Source: a virus. Taken from it: a stretch of 64,000 nt of DNA. The position numbers and the translations under genes are program-made. Each line of letters starts with the position of its first letter. Within the stretch, counting starts at the first letter, position 1. The notes below the pieces were generated by a model. It made no database searches. It worked only from the letters and a program-made list of their open reading frames with translations, and had not been told where the DNA came from. This document shows positions 21,765-64,000 of this stretch, in pieces. The stretch is taken from IMG/VR virus record IMGVR_UViG_3300009509_000004, positions 42,759-106,758 of that record; one strand, given 5' to 3'.

Positions 21765-22364
21765 TCAAGCAGCCAGCTTCTGAACTTTGGCCTTGCCGCC
21801 AATAGAAAAGCCCTTGAGCTTGGCCTCTTTGACCAATTTCCAGACCTTGGCGTCAGTCACCTTGACTGTCATGATCCATGCGCCCTCTTTGACTGTGGTG
21901 CCATTGATCACAACGTCATGTGGAGCGATCCAAGACTCAAGAAGCTCAAATTGTTGCTTTCCAAAATACTTGTGCATTAGGCCAAGTTTGGTGGCCTTGT
22001 TGTACCTTGCTACGAATTGGTGCGCCGCCTTCCTGATCACCTCCTTGCTCATGATGTCGCCTTGGGCGTCCACCACTTCTGGCTGGAGCACGACGCCTGT
22101 GACAGTCTGCTCATCAGCATTGGCTTTGATCAGGGGCACATAGATGTTCTTTTGGACTTCAGTTGTCTCCATGTCCTCTGCCTTCTCTTGAGGCTCCAGC
22201 TTGACCTTGGGCTGCTTTGGCTTGACGCCGCTGCCGCCTGGTAGCCCCCTTGCTGGGTGCAATTTGCCGCTGTCGCTCAAGTCTCCAGCATCGATGGTCT
22301 TGGCGACAACTTTGTGTTGCCCCTTCTCATCGGCTGGAAAAGCTCTGCGTGGTAGCCTTGGCAC
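21765..22364 (-). CDS. Prohead serine protease (XkdF-like)
   Basis: VTGVVLQPEVVDAQGD...AAHQF...MH...ESWIAP...GAWIM...GFSIGG. Confidence 0.88.
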   Translation of the reverse strand: MPRLPRRAFPADEKGQHKVVAKTIDAGDLSDSGKLHPARGLPGGSGVKPKQPKVKLEPQEKAEDMETTEVQKNIYVPLIKANADEQTVTGVVLQPEVVDAQGDIMSKEVIRKAAHQFVARYNKATKLGLMHKYFGKQQFELLESWIAPHDVVINGTTVKEGAWIMTVKVTDAKVWKLVKEAKLKGFSIGGKAKVQKLAA

Positions 22365-22420
22365 ATCTCACCTCGTTTGCGCAATTCAACACAACAAGGT
22401 AAGAGTAGATTGGAAGCGCC

Positions 22421-22464
22421 AAAAAGGAAAGCATCACACAGGCATGAAACCCGTTATGCTTTCT
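22421..22464 (-). terminator. Intrinsic terminator after the MuF operon
   Basis: GAAAGCAT...ATGCTTTC stem followed by CTTTTT on the minus strand. Confidence 0.5.
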
Positions 22465-22500
22465 TGATTTTGTGCAAATGATGTGGGAGAACGGCTGAAA

Positions 22501-40265: not shown

Positions 40266-41282
40266 TATGTGCTCCCTTTCTGTGGGCTGGGTGTGAATGT
40301 GCCTGTTTGGTCCTACGTGGTTTGCTGCAGTGGGTCAAGCTGAAACGACCTCGTGCGCGTCGTGTGTCGATGGGGACAGCAACCCCACACTTGATGGCCG
40401 TGTGGACGCATGGCCGCTTGGCCGGTGCATGTGATGAGTGAGTGTGGCCGTGTGGCCGGTTGGTGGGTGGCGTGGGCGCATGAGCGCTTGACGTTGTGGC
40501 CTGTGTGCAAAATTTTTGTTGTGCAGTAGGCGCGGTGCAGGCATGCAGCACTCAGCGCACCGCGCACTCGGTTTCATGCACAGTGGGGGCCACAGGCGAG
40601 CGCACGATGTACCAAACCTCCAAGAATCCTTGGACTTCATGGCCGCATGGCTGACATGGTTGGCATAGTTGACAGCGCTGTAGACTCTGTAGCCCCAGGG
40701 CCACATTGCCTCATGGCCCCCAGCGCAATGCTCTGCAGGCGGCATGGCTGCAGGGTGTGCGTGTGACTGTGCAGCTGTGCTGCACTGCATGTGGCAGGGC
40801 CACCCCACCATTTCCACGTTTCCACAATTCCACGACACCCACCTTGCTTGCCTGCTCTCTCTCTGCTGCTTTCTGTACCGTCTGACTCTACATCTATGCC
40901 TATGCTACCTACAATGCTATATGTTGTTTGTCCTCTTGCCTACCCTACGGTGATCGAGGTATCTGCTGGGGTGCTATCTTCTCTGCCTGATACACTCCAC
41001 TGTTCCCCTTCATTTCACACGGTTCTCAGATTGGCTATATGGTTTGTCTCATGCGGGGATTTTTGGGATTGGCAAGATCCTATCATTGGTGGTATGTATT
41101 CTTGTTTTCTATGGCTGATGTCGGTCTGTGGAATCTCTCAAAATCCTATTGGATATGGGTGTATTGTTGTCTTCAGGGCATATTCATAGGGGCATGCATA
41201 TATAGGGGCAATTTGCCCCATATCTGATGGGGTTTCACAAAACAGGCTATCAACGCCTGGAAATCAGGCGTGTAAATGGGGG
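40266..41282. other. ~1-kb non-coding tract with short repeats and palindromes
   Basis: No credible ORF; TGGCCG repeats; many TGCA/CATG. Confidence 0.5.
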
Positions 41283-44938: not shown

Positions 44939-45135
44939 GATCGCCTCCTGTAAGTGGTGTCCATCGTTGATTCTATTTCCCCTTACAGGATCAGCCAAGG
45001 TTTAGCTGAAATATGGTGCGTTTTTGGCTTGTCCAAAAATGCGTTTTCTGGTGTGTTTTGTGGTGTGCGTGTGACTTTGTATGGAGGTGGAATTGGGGGT
45101 GCCGTCTTGGTGTGTTTCCGGCACCCTCGATGTGG

Positions 45136-45642
45136 CTATTGGATGACGAATGGCCCCTTTGGACCTGTGGCGATGGCCCCGCTGTAGAATTGCTTGAGCA
45201 ATCCCCAAAGCGCCTGTCTTTGTGCATGTGGAACCACGTTGACCTCGTTTTCGCCGTCCCAATGCCGCCCTGGGATGCGCCGCCAAGCGTGAAGTGAATC
45301 CTCGTTGTATGGCGTTTTGACGATGTAGGTGCCTGCGTGGTCAACAATCTTGACCGCAACGCACCTTTTCTCGATGCGATCTGCCAAGTTGTGGAATCCC
45401 AGATCCCTGAGTCTCGCAAGCGGCTCAACCGCGTCCATCCCGTTCTGAACGATGGCGATCTTGTAGACCAGCTGGTTGGCCTCTTTGCGGTCTGCCTCGC
45501 TGACCTCGACCTTGTTGAGAAGTCTTGCCCGACAATCTGGGCCCATTCCCGCCTCGACTGATGCCGCGTCAACCAACGGTTTGCCGCAGGCTGCGCAGTG
45601 GGTTGCGAGAATCTTGGTGGTTGGTGCTGTTTCGTATGACAT
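45136..45642 (-). CDS. Early protein with CxxCG.PL.D..S...G.GP.C Zn domain (DUF6011-like) and C-terminal HARP-like domain
   Basis: Motifs; start directly after promoter module 1. Confidence 0.7.
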   Translation of the reverse strand: MSYETAPTTKILATHCAACGKPLVDAASVEAGMGPDCRARLLNKVEVSEADRKEANQLVYKIAIVQNGMDAVEPLARLRDLGFHNLADRIEKRCVAVKIVDHAGTYIVKTPYNEDSLHAWRRIPGRHWDGENEVNVVPHAQRQALWGLLKQFYSGAIATGPKGPFVIQ

Positions 45643-45745
45643 GCCCGTTCTCCTTTCAGGTGGTTTGCCTTCCACCTTTTCTTCAAGTATAGTTGGCTTG
45701 CTTCCATAAGTCAAGAAAAAACGACCTCAGAGACAACTTTTTTTG
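45640..45745 (-). promoter_or_regulatory. Early module 1: TTGACT-17-TATACT promoter plus hairpin leader
   Basis: -35 at 45714-45709, -10 at 45691-45686. Confidence 0.85.
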
Positions 45746-46098
45746 TATGCCTGATACAGCGCAACGTTCAACGTTGCCGTCCTGGCCGGTTTCTGGACAA
45801 GCCTTGTGCCGTTTGTGTGTTGCGCAAGCGCATCGAGCCATCCCCCTGTGTAAATGACCACTGGAAGTGGGCACCTTTCAATCATCACCCTTCCCCCGCC
45901 CAACGGCACATCCCAATCACTAAGCACCACGTCATACTTCCCTGTTGCCGCCTCGACCAGCCCCTGTTGTACTGTGTAAACTGCCTTGACTTGCTTCCAG
46001 TGGTCCTTGAGTTGCCTCTCAATCGCCCTCGCCAATGTTTCATCATCTTCAACCACAAGCAAACTGAGCCGCCTGATGGTGCCCTCCATTCCAATCAT
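45727..46098 (-). CDS. Stand-alone response regulator receiver domain (CheY-like)
   Basis: LLVVEDD, DVVLSDWDVP (phospho-Asp), IYTG, QKP. Confidence 0.85.
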   Translation of the reverse strand: MIGMEGTIRRLSLLVVEDDETLARAIERQLKDHWKQVKAVYTVQQGLVEAATGKYDVVLSDWDVPLGGGRVMIERCPLPVVIYTGGWLDALAQHTNGTRLVQKPARTATLNVALYQAYKKSCL

Positions 46099-46114
46099 TT
46101 TTTCTCCTTGGTGG

Positions 46115-46143
46115 AAGTGAAAAGGGCACCCAACGGGTGCCCC
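46115..46143 (-). terminator. Intrinsic terminator
   Basis: GGGCACCC-GTT-GGGTGCCC-TTTT. Confidence 0.65.
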
Positions 46144-46167
46144 TCTCGCTCCTATGTTGTCGCCCTG

Positions 46168-47181
46168 TCAGGCGATGGCTTCCAAAATCATCTCAGCCTC
46201 ATCCTCTGCCCTCGGATCCAACGACCAACGCTTGATTCCCCTGAAGCGCTTGACGTCAACGTCAATCGGATTCAGGAAGCGAACAAAGCTGCCGTTGATC
46301 TCGACACCTTCTGGGCTGATGATACCGTCTGTGACCAGCTGCTCAACGATCTCCTTGGCGCTCTTGCTCTCGCCCTCTTTGGTGTCTGTCACAACGTAAA
46401 CACCGCCCGCGTGGCGCTTGCCGCACTTGCGCTTGGCCTCGACCTTGACCAACCGCTCTTCAACCGTCCTGAAGCCTCGCTCTTTTTCCATCTGGTCCTT
46501 GACCACCTCGGTGTCCTCTGCCTTCAGAATATACTCAACCGCGTCAGGGAGAAACAAACCAAACACCTTGGCGTCTGGAAGTCTGCCCGTGCCGCCGCAC
46601 GTTTCGCACATTTCCTTGTCCAAAACGTTGGCGATGTTGAATTTTTGCGGCTGATGAAGCCAGTAGTTGTATTTGCGATAGTCCCAACGCTCTGACTTGA
46701 GCCCCTCGCCGTTTGCGACTGTAGCGTGGCCGCCTGTGCCGCCCTCGACATGATCTGACATGCCGCTGATCTCGCCTTGGAGTTTGAGCGCCTTCTGCGC
46801 CCTGCGCTCGATGAGCTTGTTGATGCGGTCGATGTCGGCCTGGCCGCCTTCTGCGTCGCAAACGCCCTTGTCGATGCTCTCTTGGACGCCCTTGGCGTTG
46901 TCTTCCAGATCCTGGATCTCCTTTTGGAGATTTTGGAGCGCTTGCTTGGCCTTGCGCTTTTCTGGATTTTCGATGGTGCCGAGACAATCCGCGCACTCGT
47001 GGAAGCTGCCCTCATCGTGCGCGACGAAAATGACGGTGCCCTCTTGCGTGAGCGCCTGCCCTACGTCTGCGTTGGGTAGCCTCTTGGAAATGCCCTGCGT
47101 GACCGCCTCGCCCGTCCAATCCTCGATGGACTTGTAGTGCTCTGACCCGACCCACATGAGATAGCTTTGCTTGATTTCCAT
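46168..47181 (-). CDS. Early hypothetical protein with split Zn finger and coiled-coil insert
   Basis: CADCLG...CETCGG; start 47181 after module 2. Confidence 0.75.
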   Translation of the reverse strand: MEIKQSYLMWVGSEHYKSIEDWTGEAVTQGISKRLPNADVGQALTQEGTVIFVAHDEGSFHECADCLGTIENPEKRKAKQALQNLQKEIQDLEDNAKGVQESIDKGVCDAEGGQADIDRINKLIERRAQKALKLQGEISGMSDHVEGGTGGHATVANGEGLKSERWDYRKYNYWLHQPQKFNIANVLDKEMCETCGGTGRLPDAKVFGLFLPDAVEYILKAEDTEVVKDQMEKERGFRTVEERLVKVEAKRKCGKRHAGGVYVVTDTKEGESKSAKEIVEQLVTDGIISPEGVEINGSFVRFLNPIDVDVKRFRGIKRWSLDPRAEDEAEMILEAIA

Positions 47182-47297
47182 GTCCGTTCTCCTTTGTTTG
47201 GTGTTTGCCCTCACCATCTAATACAATTATAGTTGGCTTGCTTCCAGAAGTCAAGAAAAAAACGACCTTGGAGGCAACTTTTTTTGTCTCCACGTCC
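47179..47297 (-). promoter_or_regulatory. Early module 2 (terminator hairpin + TTGACT-17-TATAAT + leader)
   Basis: -35 at 47254-47249, -10 at 47231-47226. Confidence 0.88.
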
Positions 47298-47695
47298 TAC
47301 AACTTGGTGTAGCCCTTTTTCTGCTTGGCCTTCACCAGATCGGCAAACACGTGTTCTGCCTTGCCTTGGGATGGATACTTGCCCTTGATCTGCCTCTGGA
47401 GAGAATGCGTGCGCCGCCCCCACTCGATTGTCACCTGGAAGTCGCCATCTGCAAGCCTGTCCAAGTGGACGTTGTACACCTTGTCCGATGTCCCTTGGCG
47501 ATAGGCCAAGTTGGTCGTCACGATCCTGGCTGCCTCTGTCGCCCCGTGTGCGTTCTTTGTGTCCAGCGCGTCTGCTATGACGTCTGGTATGGCCTTGGCC
47601 TCTGCCGCTTCCCTCCGCACATCCTCGACACTTTTCAGCACGCCCTGCCCAAAAGTGCCCTCCCTCATCGCCTTTCTGATTTGTTCGAGATCCAT
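47297..47695 (-). CDS. WGR-domain protein
   Basis: SDKVYNV...EWGR...LVKAKQKKGY; start reassigned to 47695. Confidence 0.8.
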   Translation of the reverse strand: MDLEQIRKAMREGTFGQGVLKSVEDVRREAAEAKAIPDVIADALDTKNAHGATEAARIVTTNLAYRQGTSDKVYNVHLDRLADGDFQVTIEWGRRTHSLQRQIKGKYPSQGKAEHVFADLVKAKQKKGYTKL

Positions 47696-47705
47696 GATCC
47701 ACCTC

Positions 47706-48539
47706 TCAATCGAAGCAACCCGTGTTTCGCCAGTACACCTTGAGGTCTGGGTCGAAATACACGGTGTTGTCCGGTGACTCGTATGTTTGCCCCTTCTTGG
47801 CCCCTTCCCGCTCAAACGCCACCACGTAGGAATTGACGATGAACTCGCCGTTGCTGAATCGCAGCTGCGTCCAGCCCTTGTCGCAGAGCGCTTCCAGCGC
47901 GTTGTCGCTGATGGAGCACGGCAATTTGCGCTCTGGCTGCCTGACCTTGAGGATGTGATCGGGGTGGATCCAACGGACATCGCTTGGGCCTCTGAACCGT
48001 TTGCCCATCGCTGCCCCCATCGCCTTGAGCATCGCCAGATCCGACTCGATGCCCCTGAGATTGCGCTCGATGCCGACCTTGCCCGACTGGAAGTTGACTT
48101 TTGCCACCCGCTCCCACTTGCTGCCGTCCCTGTAATTGACCAACACCTCGTCACCGATGCTGATTTTTGTGCCGCTGGGTGCGTTGCGCCAAAATTGTGA
48201 CCCGTTGTAATCCAGATCGCCGATTGCCGCCCTGCCTCGCTCTGCCCGCGCCTGCTTCCGTTCTTGGACTTCCTGCTGCGTGCCTTCCATCTGTCCCAAC
48301 GCCTCGTTGAGCTGCTCCTGGGTGTATGTGCCCTTGGGCAGCCCCAAAAGCGCCTCGCCCTTGACCGTCCAAGCGTAGGTTTTGCCTGTGCGCTCGATGG
48401 GCGCAAGCGTGTACTCTCGCTTGCCTGCGTATTTGCCCCGCCTGATGTACCTGGCGCTTTGGATGACGCAATCGATCCTTTTGCCTTTCGACATGATGCT
48501 GACCGCGTCACCTACCTTGAGTGCTTTGAGATCTGTCAT
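47706..48539 (-). CDS. Early hypothetical protein with SH3/KOW-like repeats
   Basis: LKVGDAVSI and ISIGDEVLV; GGAGAACGG RBS. Confidence 0.7.
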   Translation of the reverse strand: MTDLKALKVGDAVSIMSKGKRIDCVIQSARYIRRGKYAGKREYTLAPIERTGKTYAWTVKGEALLGLPKGTYTQEQLNEALGQMEGTQQEVQERKQARAERGRAAIGDLDYNGSQFWRNAPSGTKISIGDEVLVNYRDGSKWERVAKVNFQSGKVGIERNLRGIESDLAMLKAMGAAMGKRFRGPSDVRWIHPDHILKVRQPERKLPCSISDNALEALCDKGWTQLRFSNGEFIVNSYVVAFEREGAKKGQTYESPDNTVYFDPDLKVYWRNTGCFD

Positions 48540-48593
48540 GCCCGTTCTCCTTGTTGGGTTGCCAACCCTCTTTGTTTTCTACTGAGCTGCCAC

Positions 48594-48881
48594 TTACAGC
48601 GCTGAAATTGCCGCCTCGATGTCTTCTGCCGATGCTCCGTTGAATTTCCCAAACTCCCTGACGCCTTTTTCGGTGATTTCTGCGAAGTAGTGCTTGACCT
48701 TGCGGGTGCGCTGCTCGCTGAAAACCTTGATGAGCCCTTCCTCGGTGAGCTGCTTGACCGCCTCGCCATATCCTGCCTGGAACCAATCTGGGCTGCGAAA
48801 GTTGGTGCCCAACTCGATGATGCCGCCGTTGGTGTTGAGGATGTTGATGAGAATGTCTTTTTGCGCCTCGTTGAAATTCAT
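48594..48881 (-). CDS. Winged-helix-like protein
   Basis: AVKQLTEEGLI...AEITEKG. Confidence 0.65.
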   Translation of the reverse strand: MNFNEAQKDILINILNTNGGIIELGTNFRSPDWFQAGYGEAVKQLTEEGLIKVFSEQRTRKVKHYFAEITEKGVREFGKFNGASAEDIEAAISAL

Positions 48882-48974
48882 CGTGACCTCCTATTCTTCA
48901 ATTATAGTTGGCTTGCTTCCAGAAGTCAAGAAAAAAACGACCTTGGAGGCAACTTTTTTTGGCTCCATCGTTCT
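48879..48974 (-). promoter_or_regulatory. Early module 3
   Basis: -35 at 48929-48924, -10 at 48906-48901. Confidence 0.88.
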
Positions 48975-49068
48975 CCACCTCCTTGACGATGTGTGTTTTT
49001 TATACACACACCTGCCCGTGGCCGCCTGGCTGGGCAGCCGCCTGCGCGCCCCGCTGCCGCCGCCGTGC

Positions 49069-49245
49069 CTACTGGCGGTGTGGCGGCTTGACCCGCTTGA
49101 CCTTGCCCGCCTTGGTGTTGCGGGAGTGGTTGGCCTTTGAGCGGGAAAAAAGGGTGCGGCAGAATCCGTCGTTGCGGTCGTTGTAGCTGCCGACCTCGAT
49201 GAAAAGCGCCTTGCGGATGGAGATCTGATTTGCGTTGTTGGTCAT
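49069..49245 (-). CDS. 58-aa basic early protein (below ORF-track cut-off)
   Basis: MTNNANQISIRKALFIEVGSYNDRNDGFCRTLFSRSKANHSRNTKAGKVKRVKPPHRQ directly after the module 4 RBS. Confidence 0.6.
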   Translation of the reverse strand: MTNNANQISIRKALFIEVGSYNDRNDGFCRTLFSRSKANHSRNTKAGKVKRVKPPHRQ

Positions 49246-49343
49246 GTCCGTTCTCCTTTGCCCTATTCTTCAATTATAGTTGGCTTGCTTCCAGAAGTCA
49301 AGAAAAAAGTTGCCTTGGGGCCAATTTTTTTTGACCCCAAGGC
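49243..49343 (-). promoter_or_regulatory. Early module 4
   Basis: -35 at 49301-49296, -10 at 49278-49273; 13-bp upstream stem. Confidence 0.88.
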
Positions 49344-49355
49344 GTGACACCTCCC

Positions 49356-49583
49356 TCAATAGACGATCCAACCCCGCCCCATGTTGTCCCTGCGTCGTGG
49401 GATGTCCTCTGCCGGCACGTCCAACTTCCCTGCGTACACCCCGACCATCAGCGGATCGTCGCAGACGATCCCAACACAAGTGGAACCGTACATACAACGC
49501 CCCGAATATGTTGGGCGCACGCTCGCCTCGTATCCGTCTGACTCCAACGCCTCCACGATTTTCTCTGCTTGCTCCAACGTCAT
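49356..49583 (-). CDS. Conserved small phage protein (YSGRxMYGxxC)
   Basis: Motif; GGAGAACGG RBS. Confidence 0.7.
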   Translation of the reverse strand: MTLEQAEKIVEALESDGYEASVRPTYSGRCMYGSTCVGIVCDDPLMVGVYAGKLDVPAEDIPRRRDNMGRGWIVY

Positions 49584-49596
49584 GTCCGTTCTCCTT

Positions 49597-49902
49597 TCAA
49601 TCCAAAGTGAAGCGCACGACCCAGCCTGAACCGTGCGCGGCGTGAGTGTATTGAACGGGTGCGCTCGCCTGCCGTAGCTGACCGCCGTGGAGGTGGTGGA
49701 AGTAGGGTTGCCGGATGAGCGCCCTCAAAACCACCTCCTGGACCTTCCTGATGTCCTGGAAGTCTGCTGGCGAGTCTGCGAGCACGGTGACCTCTGCTCC
49801 GATGACCTGATATGGGTCGTGCTGGCGACCTCTCGCTGCCGCTTTGACCATTAGACTGGGCCTGAACCCAGCCTTGATCGGATTTTGGTGGATGACCTTC
49901 AT
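49597..49902 (-). CDS. Hypothetical protein
   Basis: 101 aa; ATGA overlap. Confidence 0.55.
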   Translation of the reverse strand: MKVIHQNPIKAGFRPSLMVKAAARGRQHDPYQVIGAEVTVLADSPADFQDIRKVQEVVLRALIRQPYFHHLHGGQLRQASAPVQYTHAAHGSGWVVRFTLD

Positions 49903-50084
49903 TCTCGCTTCCCCTCGACCTCGACTGAGAATTTCAACTCAATGTCGTATCCGTTCTCAGGATTTTCGTGAACAAAATCGACCATTTCCTTGAGCGCTTC
50001 CATTGCCTCCTGCCAGGAAAGATCCCGATCTGTACACCGACCGTCCACCCAAAATTCCACTTTTTTCAGTAGTTTTGTCTTCAT
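49899..50084 (-). CDS. 61-aa hypothetical protein
   Basis: MKTKLLKKVEFW...; GGAGAACGG RBS. Confidence 0.6.
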   Translation of the reverse strand: MKTKLLKKVEFWVDGRCTDRDLSWQEAMEALKEMVDFVHENPENGYDIELKFSVEVEGKRE

Positions 50085-50097
50085 TGCCCGTTCTCCC

Positions 50098-50577
50098 TTA
50101 GCTGCTTGCCAAGCCAAAAAATACAAAAACTTTGCCGTGTCGCCCCGCCATCCCGTAGCGCTTTTTGTACTCGACCGTTGCGCTGTAGCCCAACTCGATG
50201 GCGAGCGCTGGCCCCCACTTGTCGTTGTAGCGCCTGGCGTGACTGAGCGCCCAGGTGCGATACTGCTTGGGAACCTGACGGATGAAATTGCGCTTGGCCT
50301 CTTTGTCGTCTGAATCCGACTCCTGGAAGAATGCCGCCGCCTCGATCCAACCGATGGCCTTGCCGACCTTGACCTGCTTGTTGGGAAGCTGGATGAGGGT
50401 GTAACCGTGCTTGGAAGCGATGTCGCCGCTGTAGCTGTAGAGATCCTCATCGCAAGCGTCGTATCCGTCGCAAGCCATATCCGCCCGCCTCTCGCTGGCC
50501 GCCTGGTCTTGCGCGTTGCGGAAAGCCGCCCCGATGTCTTTGCCAAATGCCGTCGTTGAGAATTCACATGCGCCCAT
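50098..50577 (-). CDS. Conserved phage hypothetical protein
   Basis: MGACEF...AF..A...YSGDIASK...KWGPALAI...FFGLAS. Confidence 0.75.
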   Translation of the reverse strand: MGACEFSTTAFGKDIGAAFRNAQDQAASERRADMACDGYDACDEDLYSYSGDIASKHGYTLIQLPNKQVKVGKAIGWIEAAAFFQESDSDDKEAKRNFIRQVPKQYRTWALSHARRYNDKWGPALAIELGYSATVEYKKRYGMAGRHGKVFVFFGLASS

Positions 50578-50682
50578 TTCCGTTCTCCTTTTGTTTGCCC
50601 TATTCTTCAATTATAGTTGGCTTGCTTCCAGAAGTCAAGAAAAAAACGACCTTGGAGGCAACTTTTTTTGTCTCCAAGGTCG
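50575..50682 (-). promoter_or_regulatory. Early module 5
   Basis: -35 at 50638-50633, -10 at 50615-50610; CGACCTTGGAG/CTCCAAGGTCG stem followed by T7. Confidence 0.88.
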
Positions 50683-50692
50683 CCATCTCCCC

Positions 50693-51028
50693 TCACTCTC
50701 CTTTCACAAACCAATCGACAGGGGCAAGCCCCAAGTATCCGTTCAGCCGCTCAAATACCTCGTTGGCGTCCAAGCAACCCTCGATCCGACTCCGCACCGC
50801 CTCCACGAAACACCGCGCCCCGATTGTCGAGACAACGCCGTTGAGAATCAGCCAACGGCCATCAGCGATCTCGATCTCCACCATCTTCCCATCTTCCTCA
50901 AATAGAATCTGGGCAGCTGTCTCGCCCTCGCCCACCTCCCACGTATAGTGGGCACCCTCGCCATCGCCGTCCACGAAAAACCCAGCAACGATGGCTCTCT
51001 TGGTCTCTTTGATTTTCTTCTTCATCAT
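50693..51028 (-). CDS. Hypothetical protein
   Basis: GGAGAACGG RBS; after module 6. Confidence 0.6.
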   Translation of the reverse strand: MMKKKIKETKRAIVAGFFVDGDGEGAHYTWEVGEGETAAQILFEEDGKMVEIEIADGRWLILNGVVSTIGARCFVEAVRSRIEGCLDANEVFERLNGYLGLAPVDWFVKGE

Positions 51029-51140
51029 CCGTTCTCCTTTCAAGTTGGTATGCCGTCCAACCATACTTCAATTATAGTTGACACCCCCGACTATTTTTGG
51101 TCCATTTTGCAGGTTGGAGGCAATTTTTTTTGTCTCCACG
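51026..51140 (-). promoter_or_regulatory. Early module 6 (degenerate -35, intact TATAAT and leader)
   Basis: -10 at 51076-51071. Confidence 0.6.
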
Positions 51141-51373
51141 TACTTTTTTTGAGAGCCAATTTTTTTTTGCCTCCACGTTCTTTTTCTCTTGACTTCTGCT
51201 CCCCAATTTTCTCAATTTCCAAAGTCTATTGAATAGATTGCGGAGAACCCACGCCCGCTTGGCTCGTTTGCGTCGTGCCTCTCGCTCAAGCCCCGCTTGG
51301 ATATGCTCCACCCATGCCGCTCGATGTGGGTTTTCTTGGCTCTGCCGATCTTGCAATTGCGGAAAGCCACGTC

Positions 51374-51433
51374 AAAAAAAGTTGGCTCTGAAGTCTCTTT
51401 TTTCTTGACTACAACTTCTTTTGGCGTTATACT
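51374..51433 (+). promoter_or_regulatory. Plus-strand promoter of the same family (A7 GTTGG...TTTTTTC TTGACT-17-TATACT)
   Basis: -35 at 51405-51410, -10 at 51428-51433. Confidence 0.8.
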
Positions 51434-51439
51434 ATACTT

Positions 51440-51580
51440 GCGGGGTGTATGCTGCATTCGCGTGCTACCGTTTGCCTGAACCTTCTAACGCGCCGCGTTA
51501 GAGCAAGGCAGATCTCCCCCTTCCTCCCCAGCGGTGCTGGTAGGTACCAGTACTGTCCTGGATGTGCTTCCACCTGCTCC
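51440..51580 (+). ncRNA. Putative structured small RNA
   Basis: Follows the plus-strand promoter; no ORF; stems 51471-51512 and 51531-51556 with G-U pairs valid only on + strand; C-rich linker. Confidence 0.55.
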
Positions 51581-51792
51581 TACGGCAGAACGTGGACCAC
51601 GGTGAAGCCTCTCGACTGCGCCGTGGCCTTGGCCTGCTGGCGTGCCTCGGTGAAGGTGCCGGTGAAGCTGACCCAATTATCCATGTTGTCTGGATCGTCG
51701 CCCAGAGCGAACATCCACGCCCCAAAACCCTTGGGTTGCTTCATGTGACTGCGGAAGAATGCTGCGGTTTCAACTGATACTCTCTTTGCCAT
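51580..51792 (-). CDS. Conserved small phage protein (SHxKxPxGxGxWxF)
   Basis: Motif; after module 7. Confidence 0.75.
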   Translation of the reverse strand: MAKRVSVETAAFFRSHMKQPKGFGAWMFALGDDPDNMDNWVSFTGTFTEARQQAKATAQSRGFTVVHVLP

Positions 51793-51885
51793 GTCCGTTC
51801 TCCTTTGCCCTATTCTTCAATTATAGTTGGCTTGCTTCCAGAAGTCAAGAAAAAAACGACCTTGGAGCCAACTTTTTTTGACCCA
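51790..51885 (-). promoter_or_regulatory. Early module 7
   Basis: -35 at 51848-51843, -10 at 51825-51820. Confidence 0.88.
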
Positions 51886-51913
51886 CCACTTCCACTGAGC
51901 AATGCCCTGAACA

Positions 51914-51947
51914 GAAAAGTAGGAGTGCCCCACAACGGGGCACTCCT
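51914..51947 (-). terminator. Intrinsic terminator
   Basis: AGGAGTGCCCC-GTTGT-GGGGCACTCCT-ACTTTTC. Confidence 0.7.
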
Positions 51948-51977
51948 TGGGCAAATGGAGAACGGATGACGATCTGG

Positions 51978-52586
51978 TCAGCGCTGATCTGTCTTCAAGA
52001 TCCCAAAGCGCTGCGTGAGCTTGTATTCATCGATGAGCTGATCTGCGATGTCCTTGTTGCCCAGCTCTTGGGCAAGCATCGTCAGCACCAACCCGATGAT
52101 GTTGTGCGTGTAGTTGCCATTCTGTTGGAGTGCTCGCCTGATGCGCGATCTCGCCTTGGTGACTGCTTCTGGCTCGTTGTCCGGCACCTTGTCGCAGATG
52201 CACTCGACCCTGCCGCAGATCTCACAAAGTGGGCGTGGGGCTGGCTTTTCCGATTTGCTGGGTGCCTTCTTGGCCTCCCTCGCTGCCTCCCCTGCCGCCT
52301 CTCGTGTTTTCGATTTGATCTTGACCTTCCCCTTGGGCTTGGTCTGCTTTTTGCCTCCTTGCTGTGTTTCTGCGTGCTGGCCCTCGCTGGGTGCCTCTGG
52401 TGCCGTGTAGCCTTTCTCTCTGATGTCGCCGTGAGCTTCGCAATCTGGATTGCGACAGAATGCGTATGGGTCAGACTTCTTGACTGACCTGTACTTGCCT
52501 GCCGCCTGAAGCTCTGGGTCTGGCATGTGCTTGAAGAGAATCTTGCCGCACGCGGGACAAGGTGGCTGTTTTGGTCTGCCTGCCAT
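51978..52586 (-). CDS. Zn-finger early protein
   Basis: CPAC...CRNPDC and CEIC..CIC; AGGAGG RBS. Confidence 0.7.
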   Translation of the reverse strand: MAGRPKQPPCPACGKILFKHMPDPELQAAGKYRSVKKSDPYAFCRNPDCEAHGDIREKGYTAPEAPSEGQHAETQQGGKKQTKPKGKVKIKSKTREAAGEAAREAKKAPSKSEKPAPRPLCEICGRVECICDKVPDNEPEAVTKARSRIRRALQQNGNYTHNIIGLVLTMLAQELGNKDIADQLIDEYKLTQRFGILKTDQR

Positions 52587-52598
52587 GGTAGCCTCCTG

Positions 52599-53183
52599 TT
52601 ATGCCCGCTCGATGACGGTTGCTAGGTTGAAAAGTGCCTCGCTGATTTCGCTGCGCCCCTTGACCTCTGCGACCTCTGCGAGACTGAGGGTGCGCTCGAT
52701 GGCGCTGTCCCTGTCGTAACTGAACTGCTGCGTTTGCGCGACTTGAAGCGCCTTGTCGGTGTACTCTTTGGCCGTCGTGAACTCGTGACCGTTGAGCGCC
52801 CGCTCGATGACCTGAAGCGCCTCTTGAACGATGTGGACGGTGACCTTGCCGTAGCTGGTGCTGCGACGGTTGCCTGCGTAGGTGGTGCGCGTCCAAACCT
52901 GGTAGCCCTTTGCGCGCTTGATTTGCTGGGCCTGCTCCCAAAGCTCCTTTGCGATGGCCCAAGTGAAAGTGACCTCGGTGATCTCGACTGCCGACTTGAC
53001 AAACGCCTTGCTTTCGCCGTGTCGGGTGCTGGCCCCGCCGTTGCGCGCTTCCTTGGCGCTGCTTACCTCGCCCCAACACCGCACGATGGCTTCTGGCTTG
53101 GCGCGAAAGTCGATGGCCTGAACGATGTACTTGCGACCCGTTGCTTTGACTTCTGCGATGCGTTCTTTTCTGATTGGCTTCAT
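52599..53183 (-). CDS. Early hypothetical protein
   Basis: 194 aa after module 8. Confidence 0.7.
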   Translation of the reverse strand: MKPIRKERIAEVKATGRKYIVQAIDFRAKPEAIVRCWGEVSSAKEARNGGASTRHGESKAFVKSAVEITEVTFTWAIAKELWEQAQQIKRAKGYQVWTRTTYAGNRRSTSYGKVTVHIVQEALQVIERALNGHEFTTAKEYTDKALQVAQTQQFSYDRDSAIERTLSLAEVAEVKGRSEISEALFNLATVIERA

Positions 53184-53278
53184 TCCCGTTCTCCTTTGCC
53201 CTATTCTTCAATTATAGTTGAAGCCAATCCAGAAGTCAAGAAAAAAGTTGCCTTGGAGGCAATTTTTTTTGGCCCCTC
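53181..53278 (-). promoter_or_regulatory. Early module 8
   Basis: -35 at 53239-53234, -10 at 53216-53211. Confidence 0.85.
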
Positions 53279-53513
53279 ATCCGATGTTGATTTTCTTGAG
53301 CCTCTCAATGGGCACCCTGTCATTCGGATCGCCGTTCAACTCGATCTCTGTCGGGATGTCAATGCCAATCTCGTTGAACACGATGTGTCGCATCTCAAAC
53401 CCGCTGATCCGCCCCTCACGCTGGATGCCTTCTGAAGTCTCCAATCGCACAAACTCGCCAACTGAGTTGACCAGCTCGTCAATCCATTTCCCTGTCTCGC
53501 TCTTGTTCGCCAT
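53277..53513 (-). CDS. Sm/Hfq-like fold protein (candidate)
   Basis: Helix then VRLETSEGIQREGRISGFEM (Sm1-like) and VPIERLKKI (Sm2-like); AGGAGG RBS. Confidence 0.5.
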   Translation of the reverse strand: MANKSETGKWIDELVNSVGEFVRLETSEGIQREGRISGFEMRHIVFNEIGIDIPTEIELNGDPNDRVPIERLKKINIG

Positions 53514-53718
53514 TTTTTGCCTCCTGTGGTTCTGCGCAGTCAATGCTGCAAAATTTTTTGGTTTTGGGCACGTCAGCGCCGCACCTGACGCATCGTCCAA
53601 GCCTGAAAAATGAGATCGCACCTGCCTTCAACAGCTCACTGAATGCAGACCTCTCTGCTGTGGTCATGTATTCTTTCTTGGGGTCAAACCGCCACAGCGT
53701 TGTCTGCTTCAATCCCAT
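53479..53718 (-). CDS. Zn-ribbon protein (CxxCG...FCSxxC)
   Basis: CVRCGADVPKTKKFCSIDC. Confidence 0.55.
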   Translation of the reverse strand: MGLKQTTLWRFDPKKEYMTTAERSAFSELLKAGAISFFRLGRCVRCGADVPKTKKFCSIDCAEPQEAKNGEQERDREMD

Positions 53719-62960: not shown

Positions 62961-64000
62961 TCAACCTTTTGCTTTCGCCTTGCCCTTCTTGCCCTTGGAG
63001 ATTTTGGTCAGCTCATCGTCAAGAGCATCCAACCCCAGCTCGTCATCGTCATCGTCGCTGGGCTTGGGTTTCTTGGCCTTCACCACCTTGGGCTTGTCTG
63101 CAGGCTTTTTGTTTTTCTTGGGCGGTGGAGGTGGCTCATCATCTTCATCCTCGTCATCGCCCTCTTCATCCTCGTCATCGCTGTCGTCATCGTCGTCATC
63201 GTCGTCAGCGTCGTCATCGTCGTCAGCGTCGTCATCATCCTCTTCATCGTCATCGTCGCTGTCGTCGTCATCGTCGCTGTCGTCACCGTCGTCATCTTCC
63301 TCCAGCTCATCTTCATCGTCGCTGTCGTCAGTGCCTTCGGTGTCGTCATCCTCATCCCAATCGCCCTCTTCATCATCGTCACTTTCCTCAACCTTCACAC
63401 CGCTGAGGATTGCCTCGATCTCCGATGGCGCTTTGATGAGGTTAGCCATGACCTTGAACAGATCGCAGTCACCGCCCTCGACCATGGCCGCCTCGATGCG
63501 CTTGCGCAATTTTGGCGGCAACTTGAATGGCTTTCTGAGCGTTTCAACGTCAGCCGTCACCTTGTAGCGGGTGTCATTCTTGCCCTTGCCCTCTCTGTGG
63601 ACCATGGCCAAGATCGCCCCATCCATATCGGTGATGTCGCCAGCTTCGATGAACAACTCCATGATGCCGTCATAGATGGTCTTGCCGACCATTGCGACAG
63701 ATGGCTTCCCTGGCAGCTTGCGCCATTCCTCAGCCTTGCTGCCCCGATGCTTGAGCGGGGTGATGCCCCACAGGAAGCGTTGCTGCCTGCGCGACTCGTC
63801 AGCCTCTGCCTCTGACATCTTGCCACTGTCCATTGCCTCTGCCAACGGACACTTCCCTGTGAGCTTGATCTTGCGCTTCTTGAGAAACGCCTTCACAAAT
63901 GGGTGCTCCACAATCGGGTTGGCAGCTGGGTCAAGTGACACAACCATGGCGTTGTTCTGACCAACCCCATAGTGCACTGCCGCCTCGATGTAGTTGGTGC
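62961..64000 (-). CDS. Putative single-stranded DNA-binding protein with long acidic tail (5' end off window)
   Basis: Frame open to window edge; CPL, ITD...G...REGKGKNDTRY.V pattern of gp32-like phage SSBs; next to recA. Confidence 0.6.
   Translation of the reverse strand, partial: TNYIEAAVHYGVGQNNAMVVSLDPAANPIVEHPFVKAFLKKRKIKLTGKCPLAEAMDSGKMSEAEADESRRQQRFLWGITPLKHRGSKAEEWRKLPGKPSVAMVGKTIYDGIMELFIEAGDITDMDGAILAMVHREGKGKNDTRYKVTADVETLRKPFKLPPKLRKRIEAAMVEGGDCDLFKVMANLIKAPSEIEAILSGVKVEESDDDEEGDWDEDDDTEGTDDSDDEDELEEDDDGDDSDDDDDSDDDDEEDDDDADDDDDADDDDDDDDSDDEDEEGDDEDEDDEPPPPPKKNKKPADKPKVVKAKKPKPSDDDDDELGLDALDDELTKISKGKKGKAKAKG
63137..63387. repeat. Low-complexity (TCG/TCA)n tract encoding poly-Asp/Glu
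   Basis: Direct reading of the sequence. Confidence 0.85.

Follow-up and report, generated by a model that had tools for sequence, protein, structure and literature searches.

The stretch of DNA considered here (the window, 64,000 nucleotides, nt) covers positions 42759-106758 of the 106,758-bp IMG/VR virus record IMGVR_UViG_3300009509_000004. With a codon-model gene caller, all called genes fall on the minus strand, and the features below lie on that strand unless the plus strand is named; coordinates are those of the window, except where a locus number (L007 to L012) precedes them. Between 45136 and 53718 the window holds an array of mostly small genes, with genes of recombination and nucleotide metabolism upstream (RecA, an SbcCD-like pair, a 5'-3' exonuclease and dCMP deaminase) and with a 1-kb non-coding stretch, then morphogenesis genes, downstream. 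Within the array, the 9-mer GGAGAACGG is found in exactly 10 copies on the minus strand (45645-53194), each of them 2-3 nt before an ATG. This shared leader, and the copies of its complement found elsewhere in the genome, are the subject of this text.

An earlier note, prepared from the letters of the sequence, had listed ten gene starts with one common leader, most of them with a GGCA element upstream. Both statements hold, as the exact 9-mer stands before the ATG at all ten starts and GGCA lies within ~30 nt upstream of it in nine of these ten genes. Outside the window, ~70 kb away, the leader is also carried by two genes that resemble cobS and cobT, which brings the leader-bearing genes of the genome to 12. 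All 12 forward copies sit 2-4 nt before an ATG, and none is found in coding sequence. The 9-mer is composed of a Shine-Dalgarno (SD) core, GGAG, followed by AACGG, a part that cannot lengthen the pairing with the canonical tail of the 16S rRNA; the whole may be a start-associated tag that is selected beyond plain SD pairing. The same argument, that no further pairing with rRNA is available, has been made for the start-associated sequences (SAS) of cluster K mycobacteriophages (PMC3203893).

The 9-mer forms the 3' end of a module of ~100 nt, which consists of a terminator hairpin with A- and T-tracts, a promoter, a short leader and the ATG. The promoter, TTGACT-17-TATAAT, has six exact matches against 0.01 expected, and the hairpins, with predicted energies of -9 to -30 kcal/mol, each end in a T-run at the -35. 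There are 11 forward copies of the module and one inverted copy. The array contains seven clear ones, one with a different ribosome-binding site (RBS; before gene L) and one without a -35 (before gene F), and full copies also precede the cobT- and cobS-like genes (L011:4264-4370 and L011:5549-5675, at 15.3 and 16.6 kb of the genome), in a unit that ends ~4 kb downstream. By contrast, genes M, J and H have the 9-mer without a promoter or module of their own and with unrelated flanks, so the 9-mer is conserved for its own sake and not by duplication alone. Since it is invariant while its flanks differ, we consider the standardised leader to be real and under selection.

Ahead of the 9-mer, the leader of the module carries a GGGCAAA element. 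In four copies with a long leader, and in L009 (a relative, see below), this element or a near variant occupies the loop of a 5' hairpin, the stem of which varies by copy (45659-45676, 47200-47215, 51044-51062 and 48556-48568; L009:925-945); stems differ, and the purine-rich loop is alike. Such hairpins could be stem-loops that stabilise the mRNA or a site for a protein or antiterminator of the boxB kind.

The complement of the 9-mer (the reverse 9-mer, or anti-leader) is found three times on the transcribed strand, at 51957-51965, at 22486-22494 and at L011:157-165, L011 being a stretch of the same genome outside the window that holds the cobS- and cobT-like genes. A first-order Markov model predicts 0.10 copies per genome, and three or more were obtained in none of 300 simulations. 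The three copies are intergenic, in a genome of which intergenic DNA makes up 6.6%; in fact, all 15 copies of the 9-mer, forward and reverse, are intergenic. Each anti-leader either follows a stop codon and precedes a strong terminator or occupies the loop of such a terminator, and the matches extend over 12 nt (site 1, L011), 10 nt (site 2, 22419..22500) and 20 nt (site 3, 51949..51968) of particular leaders.

Site 3 is the near-complement of the leader that had already been pointed out in a 3' untranslated region (UTR), and it comprises the exact reverse 9-mer and a 7-nt flank match with one bulge. It stands between the stop codon of gene D (51978..52586) and an intrinsic terminator (51921..51947), in which a 12-bp stem of -21.2 kcal/mol is followed by a T-run, and its predicted duplexes with the leaders have energies of -23 to -30 kcal/mol. 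Site 1 is a 12-nt anti-leader (L011:154-165) in the 38-nt loop of the -40 kcal/mol terminator that ends the cobS/cobT unit. Site 2 lies in the tail of a late operon; its 9-mer, 6 nt past the stop codon, is followed by an A/U-rich spacer, a hairpin and a T-run, which is the layout of a small RNA (sRNA) derived from a 3' UTR, and its probability of being unpaired is 0.95 alone and 0.85 with the downstream sequence. Taken together, sites 1 and 2 stay unpaired with probabilities of 0.67-0.95 and form predicted duplexes of -17 to -25 kcal/mol. In the cobS/cobT unit, as in the unit of genes C and D, the leader stands at the start and its complement at the end. The probable role of sites 1 and 2 is to cover leaders through RNA pairing, whether in trans or between the 5' and 3' ends of one mRNA.

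The clearest prediction is obtained for gene E (51580..51792), which codes for an ORFan protein of 70 residues and has a terminator upstream, a predicted clamp on its RBS and a convergent antisense promoter. Its cassette (51793..51893; promoter 51820-51848, 9-mer 51795-51803) follows the terminator of D. When the transcripts are folded, the leader of E is unpaired with a probability of 0.63 in the transcript from its own promoter, as opposed to 0.00 in read-through RNA from D, in which site 3 pairs with the leader and the start codon of E. Hence, on RNA reading through the terminator of D, site 3 would mask the leader and AUG of E, and E would be translated only from its own promoter. No such clamp was found on read-through RNA at the eight other modules tested or at sites 1 and 2.

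This arrangement has a precedent in phage T4: the long read-through RNAs of e, soc, 49 and I-TevI contain, further upstream, a complement that conceals the SD and AUG, and translation takes place from the transcripts of the proximal promoter, in which this arm is missing (PMC3014915). Site 3 and gene E resemble this strategy, a likeness predicted by folding. By contrast with T4, the clamp spans ~150 nt and encloses the terminator and the whole promoter, and the proximal promoter is an early one of the host type, not a late one. Site 3 would then be a clamp in cis of the T4 e/soc type on the RBS of gene E, which is a simpler, local job than silencing in trans. A neighbouring case may be mentioned here: in the gene that follows the terminator of site 2 (21765..22364), the SD and start region (~22365-22410) form a local hairpin with a pyrimidine tract upstream of them and are unpaired with a probability of 0.08, which is predicted to be a second example of RBS masking in this genome.

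In the direction of transcription, the array begins with Zn79 (53479..53718), a zinc-ribbon protein of 79 residues with weak Pfam zinc-ribbon matches, whose gene is the first of the conserved core and lies directly before that of the Sm-fold protein in the relatives L007 and L008. The Sm-fold protein (78 residues, 53277..53513), identified by its AlphaFold2 (AF2) model and structural matches, belongs to an unannotated family. Then come the cassette of C (53184..53284; hairpin with a T-tract, -35 at 53234-53239, -10 at 53211-53216, 9-mer at 53186-53194), gene C itself (52599..53183; 194 residues, an ORFan that is missing between the Sm-fold gene and D in the relatives) and the core gene D, which codes for 202 residues with two Cys-pair motifs and whose homologues come right after the Sm-fold gene in L007 and L008. 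The coding score of D is 0.31 per codon, against -0.19 for an antisense open reading frame (ORF) of 173 codons.

Beyond gene E, a gene-poor stretch of 540 nt (51038..51579) is made of rearranged cassette debris, including the promoter without a -35 that serves F (-10 at 51071-51076). Between 51028 and 49356 follow gene F, a cassette (50578-50692) and genes G, H, I and J, of which F, G, H and J are preceded by the 9-mer. The next part (47297..49355) contains a cassette with gene K, a cassette with its own RBS and without the 9-mer before L, gene M (9-mer, no promoter) and N. The last part (45136..47296) consists of a cassette with the core gene O (337 residues), a terminator near 46123-46145, gene P, and a cassette with gene Q. 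Thus, the modules flank one to four small ORFan genes, inserted between the conserved core genes Zn79, Sm-fold, D and O. Most proteins of the array have no family, the exceptions being N (47297-47695; WGR domain), P (45727-46098; a stand-alone response-regulator receiver domain) and Q (45136-45642; a DUF6011 zinc finger).

Modules of this kind are known from T4-type phages, in which promoter early stem-loops (PeSL) combine an A/T-rich region, a strong sigma-70-like promoter, a terminator stem-loop, an SD and a start codon, and flank ORFans in hyperplastic regions (PMC2839356, PMC4122927). Here, too, a composite promoter element of ~100 nt with the same parts, including a predicted terminator stem-loop, is repeated, and variable ORFans stand between conserved genes, with a content that differs among relatives. 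Unlike PeSL, the phage described here is unrelated to the T4 type, the hairpin is always upstream of the -35, and the leader contains an invariant 9-mer.

The 9-mer, for its part, recalls the SAS of cluster K mycobacteriophages, in which an SD core and conserved bases that do not pair with rRNA are located 3-7 nt before mostly ATG starts (PMC3203893, PMC12699233), and of which one inverted copy is not at a gene start (PMC3203893). Both are invariant, asymmetric tags with an SD core, in one orientation, before mostly ATG starts of non-structural genes that follow long intergenic gaps, and both have rare inverted copies. The differences are also evident: the tag has 9 nt here and 13 nt in cluster K, the sequence and the host are others, the tag is coupled to a promoter module, and its three inverted copies are all beside terminators. 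As the sequence differs from the cluster K consensus, we regard the 9-mer as an analogue and not as a member of SAS. The inverted SAS of phage Anaya (L012:39871-39883) falls in a non-coding region that is conserved in 135 cluster K genomes, and it forms the apical loop of a long hairpin in which 9 of 45 predicted pairs show compensatory changes in an alignment of eight genomes. This hairpin (Anaya, L012:39790-39950, and 134 other cluster K genomes) is in an unannotated region near the right end of the genome and may be a small RNA that displays an anti-SAS loop. A tag with an exposed mirror copy therefore recurs in an unrelated system, which does not prove a function for it.

The inverted copy of the module is only its upstream half (51371..51433, plus strand), recognised from the inverted repeats I1-I7 and from promoter scans: an A/T hairpin and the promoter TTGACT-17-TATACT (51405-51433), which points at gene E and is surrounded by other module fragments in the 540-nt stretch. 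Genome-wide scans agree with the previous observation that this is the only strong plus-strand promoter, in this case in the 106.8 kb of the entire genome. The RNA that would start there has a 5' domain (51440..51580, plus strand) of three hairpins and a C-rich linker, which folds at -55.3 kcal/mol with a z-score of -3.18, as opposed to 0.07 for the same span of the minus strand. The structure therefore belongs to the plus strand, and the structured RNA that had been proposed for this promoter is a plausible candidate non-coding RNA. No Rfam family was matched at gathering scores, with only chance-level matches at E up to 1, and no canonical terminator was found after it. The RNA runs antisense into gene E and, if it is ~370 nt or longer, would hold the exact complement of the E/K leader. 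Its first 141 nt, for which pairing with the leaders had been suggested as a check, show no advantage over shuffled sequences in pairing with the twelve leaders (-30.1 versus -29.3 ± 1.6). By making this antisense RNA, with its strand-specific structure, the convergent promoter would oppose gene E.

Coding on the plus strand was rejected, as the ORFs 51449-51748, 51562-51777 and 51966-52487 all have negative scores per codon, and a role of the RNA as an origin primer was set aside, as it is C-rich and not G-rich like primers of the ColE1 type. On the minus strand, an ORF of 81 codons without an SD (51212-51457) overlaps the plus-strand promoter; its mildly positive score of 0.20 per codon, similar to that of gene E, probably reflects the composition of the strand.

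The protein encoded at 53277-53513 had been described as Sm-like, and its predicted structure agrees with this description. The AF2 model, with a predicted local distance difference test (pLDDT) of 88.9, contains a helix and a bent sheet of five strands, and its best matches are nearly all Hfq, Sm and LSm proteins. The Foldseek list is dominated by Hfq, with template-modelling scores of ~0.57-0.61 and weak E-values, and in an exhaustive structural search (VIA) chains of Hfq, SmAP and LSm fill nearly all of the top 30, with Z of 6-7.4 (values under 8 can reflect a common arrangement) and root-mean-square deviations of 2.2-3.7 Å over 57-64 residues. The protein matches no Pfam family (including Hfq PF17209 and LSM PF01423) and no PHROG family. 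A full-library profile search found 158 representative clusters of ~75-90 residues, and homologues with 76-77% identity exist. From 101 homologues, one matches LSM PF01423 (E 3.7e-4), and their profile gives sub-threshold matches to SmD1 and archaeal Lsm over the helix-beta1-beta2 (Sm1) region, with E of 0.07-0.6. The alignments have no Sm2 motif (YKH in Hfq, RG in Sm, which form the uridine pocket), and an invariant acidic loop is present instead.

When four copies are modelled together, the self-association score is 0.73, compared with 0.02 for the best control, the runs share at least 67% of the contacts and the pLDDT of the partners is at least 82; the mark that this score passes is reached by 20 of 30 proteins whose solved structure is a pair of one chain and by 1 of 23 whose solved structure is a single chain, a calibration made with two copies, so that the counts are rough for four. 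The contacts of the modelled interface are reciprocal (75 with 46, 44 with 74, and 11 with 11), which suggests a two-fold dimer and not a cyclic Sm ring. The N-terminal helix, the five-stranded bent sheet, the similar size and the weak Sm1 signal are thus shared with Hfq, Sm and LSm, whereas the acidic loop, the predicted dimer and the lack of an Sm2 motif and of Pfam membership set it apart: it is a divergent member of the Sm superfamily without an Sm2 motif of the Hfq or Sm type. Nothing ties it to the leader.

Two distant relatives, L007 (low GC) and L008 (high GC), keep the core order of zinc-ribbon, Sm-fold, D and O, and the genes between and after these differ; the Sm-fold gene is conserved beside two zinc-ribbon genes in L008 as well. 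At the same place L008 has an array of a different promoter, with the start codon 6-10 nt after it, from which it follows that its early mRNAs are leaderless. In L008:10660-19764 there are at least 10 copies of this promoter, with a TTGCGT-type -35 and a start codon almost at once. Since the Sm-fold gene is kept in L008 with such mRNAs, a leader-specific role of the protein is argued against. Inverted promoters are also present in L007 and L008, where they face unrelated sequence; for instance, that of L008 (16633-16698) heads an ORF for a membrane protein of 364 residues on the other strand. Closer to the window is L009 (metagenome Ga0051987), with proteins 75% identical, which keeps genes P and N and the larger genes M and O, and also the module before O, with one base of the 9-mer changed (the eighth).

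Considering these observations, we find it reasonably probable that the region is a hyperplastic early-gene region of PeSL-type composite modules to which an anti-leader layer has been added. The array, with PeSL-like modules and a SAS-like tag, is of a known kind. What is new is the layer of anti-leaders, which stands on firm statistics and for which one local mechanism with good precedent is predicted, namely the clamp on E. In this model, host RNA polymerase would fire every module from its consensus host sigma-70 promoter, the hairpins would insulate neighbouring units, and recombination between modules would shuffle genes and would also have left the inverted half-module and the debris at 51038-51579. 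Several points weigh against this reading. The analysis rests on predictions from one metagenome-assembled genome. The terminator between site 3 and gene E means that read-through may be rare, the match at site 2 covers only 9-10 nt, and the plus-strand RNA lacks a canonical terminator. Additionally, the uniformity of the 9-mer could be due to gene conversion between modules and not to selection on it, although genes M, J and H speak against this. In the relatives, whose examination had been proposed as a check, the Sm-fold gene belongs to the core of L007 and L008, neither has an anti-leader after its homologue of D, and the early mRNAs of L008 are leaderless.

The earlier note had gone further, proposing that the phage co-silences its entire early set after transcription, in trans, by means of its own sRNAs (the plus-strand RNA and the 3' UTR element) and of the Sm protein as an Hfq-like chaperone. 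The shared leader and the Sm fold of that proposal stand, the mirror copies are exposed and the structured RNA is plausible. In fact, sites 1 and 2 have the order of parts expected of an sRNA (a seed, an A/U-rich spacer and a terminator with a U-tail), a long plus-strand RNA would carry the complement of one leader, and the 78-residue protein has a weak Sm1 signal and a high self-association score. However, the 5' part of the plus-strand RNA has no excess of complementarity to the leaders, the protein has neither Hfq or LSM Pfam matches nor a YKH- or RG-type Sm2, its most conserved loop is acidic, its modelled interface is not that of a ring, and its gene is retained where leaders are absent; site 3 is better described as a local clamp. 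Co-silencing of the whole set is therefore unsupported, and we hold silencing in trans with this chaperone to be very doubtful. The statement that no description of such a combination exists was also too strong, since PeSL cassettes, SAS motifs, T4 RBS sequestration and the pairing of the 5' and 3' UTRs of icaR in Staphylococcus aureus (PMC3868564) have been published. As in icaR and in the 3'UTR-derived sRNAs of the Hfq type, an anti-SD tract is found in a 3' UTR just before a terminator, and two units run from the leader to its complement; unlike them, the system belongs to a phage, and one shared leader offers 12 possible targets. A wider version, which also appears unlikely to us, is that the 12 genes form a true post-transcriptional regulon: anti-leader RNAs would be set free from the tails of an early, a metabolic and a late operon and, together with the antisense RNA that starts from 51405, would bring about a joint shut-off of all tagged early genes as infection proceeds, with the Sm-fold protein as matchmaker and the inverted-SAS loop of cluster K as an instance of the same strategy.

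At the other extreme, only the cassette array would matter, and the reverse leaders and the inverted promoter would be by-products of recombination, inert at the RNA level. The stretch at 51038-51579 does contain visibly rearranged and degenerate pieces of modules, modules of the PeSL type are hot spots of recombination (PMC2839356), and the inverted promoters of L007 and L008 face unrelated sequence, with that of L008 driving a membrane-protein gene. This is nevertheless hard to reconcile with three reverse 9-mers that are all intergenic and linked to terminators, two of them far from any module and none with other module parts, with seeds that are kept single-stranded, and with the strand-specific fold of the plus-strand RNA, so that we judge inert by-products to be improbable. 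A protein could also be the partner of the 9-mer, considering that T4 RegA is a translational repressor, that T4 RegB is a nuclease and that the stoperators of mycobacteriophage L5 are orientation-dependent DNA sites: the 9-mer would be bound as RNA by a repressor or nuclease, or as DNA, and the reverse copies would be additional sites. That AACGG cannot extend the pairing with the canonical 16S tail fits such a site, as does the intergenic position of all 15 copies, and two conserved neighbours, Zn79 and D, are zinc-ribbon proteins with a potential for nucleic-acid binding. However, the complement would not be a target for a protein that binds RNA, the match to a leader extends over 20 nt at site 3 and over 12 nt at site 1, with flanks that a DNA site does not require, and the clamp on E follows from pairing alone; for these reasons we think a protein-binding site quite improbable. 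Pairing of the anti-leaders with leaders, in the first place at gene E, thus remains our preferred reading.

The purpose of start-associated tags in phage genomes has been an open question since 2011, and this genome offers a compact and testable case, with a 9-nt tag on 12 genes, three mirror copies and, in gene E, a predicted on/off difference between two transcripts. If the pairing works, standardised translation signals would allow the phage to govern many genes with a few short tracts of RNA, and RBS masking in the style of T4, together with modular evolution of the PeSL type, would be extended to an unrelated lineage. Additionally, the unannotated Sm-fold family, with at least 158 sequence clusters, merits biochemical study.

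Regarding the phage itself, no close characterised phage was found by megablast and tblastn against GenBank phages, and its terminase shares ~30% identity with the terminases of T7-like podophages. IMG/VR was scanned twice for the promoter pattern and yielded no relatives (the sole match, L010, is unrelated and due to chance), a scan of GTDB genomes found none, and a scan based on the protein of gene O found none in IMG/VR and a single 2.4-kb contig in a metagenome collection. The genome has no match to a T7-type RNA polymerase (PF00940), a search in which control genomes were equally silent, and no tRNA or tmRNA was found in a scan. The 144-nt "terminal repeat" (63857-64000, equal to genome positions 1-144) lies inside a coding region, which indicates a circular assembly with an arbitrary start and not a physical end of the genome. 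Just downstream of the array region, 1,017 nt without an ORF (40266-41282) could hold an origin, a packaging site or unrecognised promoters, and a CA-rich motif of 14 nt is common to this stretch and to the spacer that follows gene Q (45062-45075). Finally, a long protein of Asp/Glu repeats is conserved in the three genomes, where its gene precedes that of the Sm-fold protein by ~8-10 kb (62961-63977 in the window, L007:1700-2030 and L008:1300-2130), and it could be a DNA mimic or a decoy for histone-like proteins.

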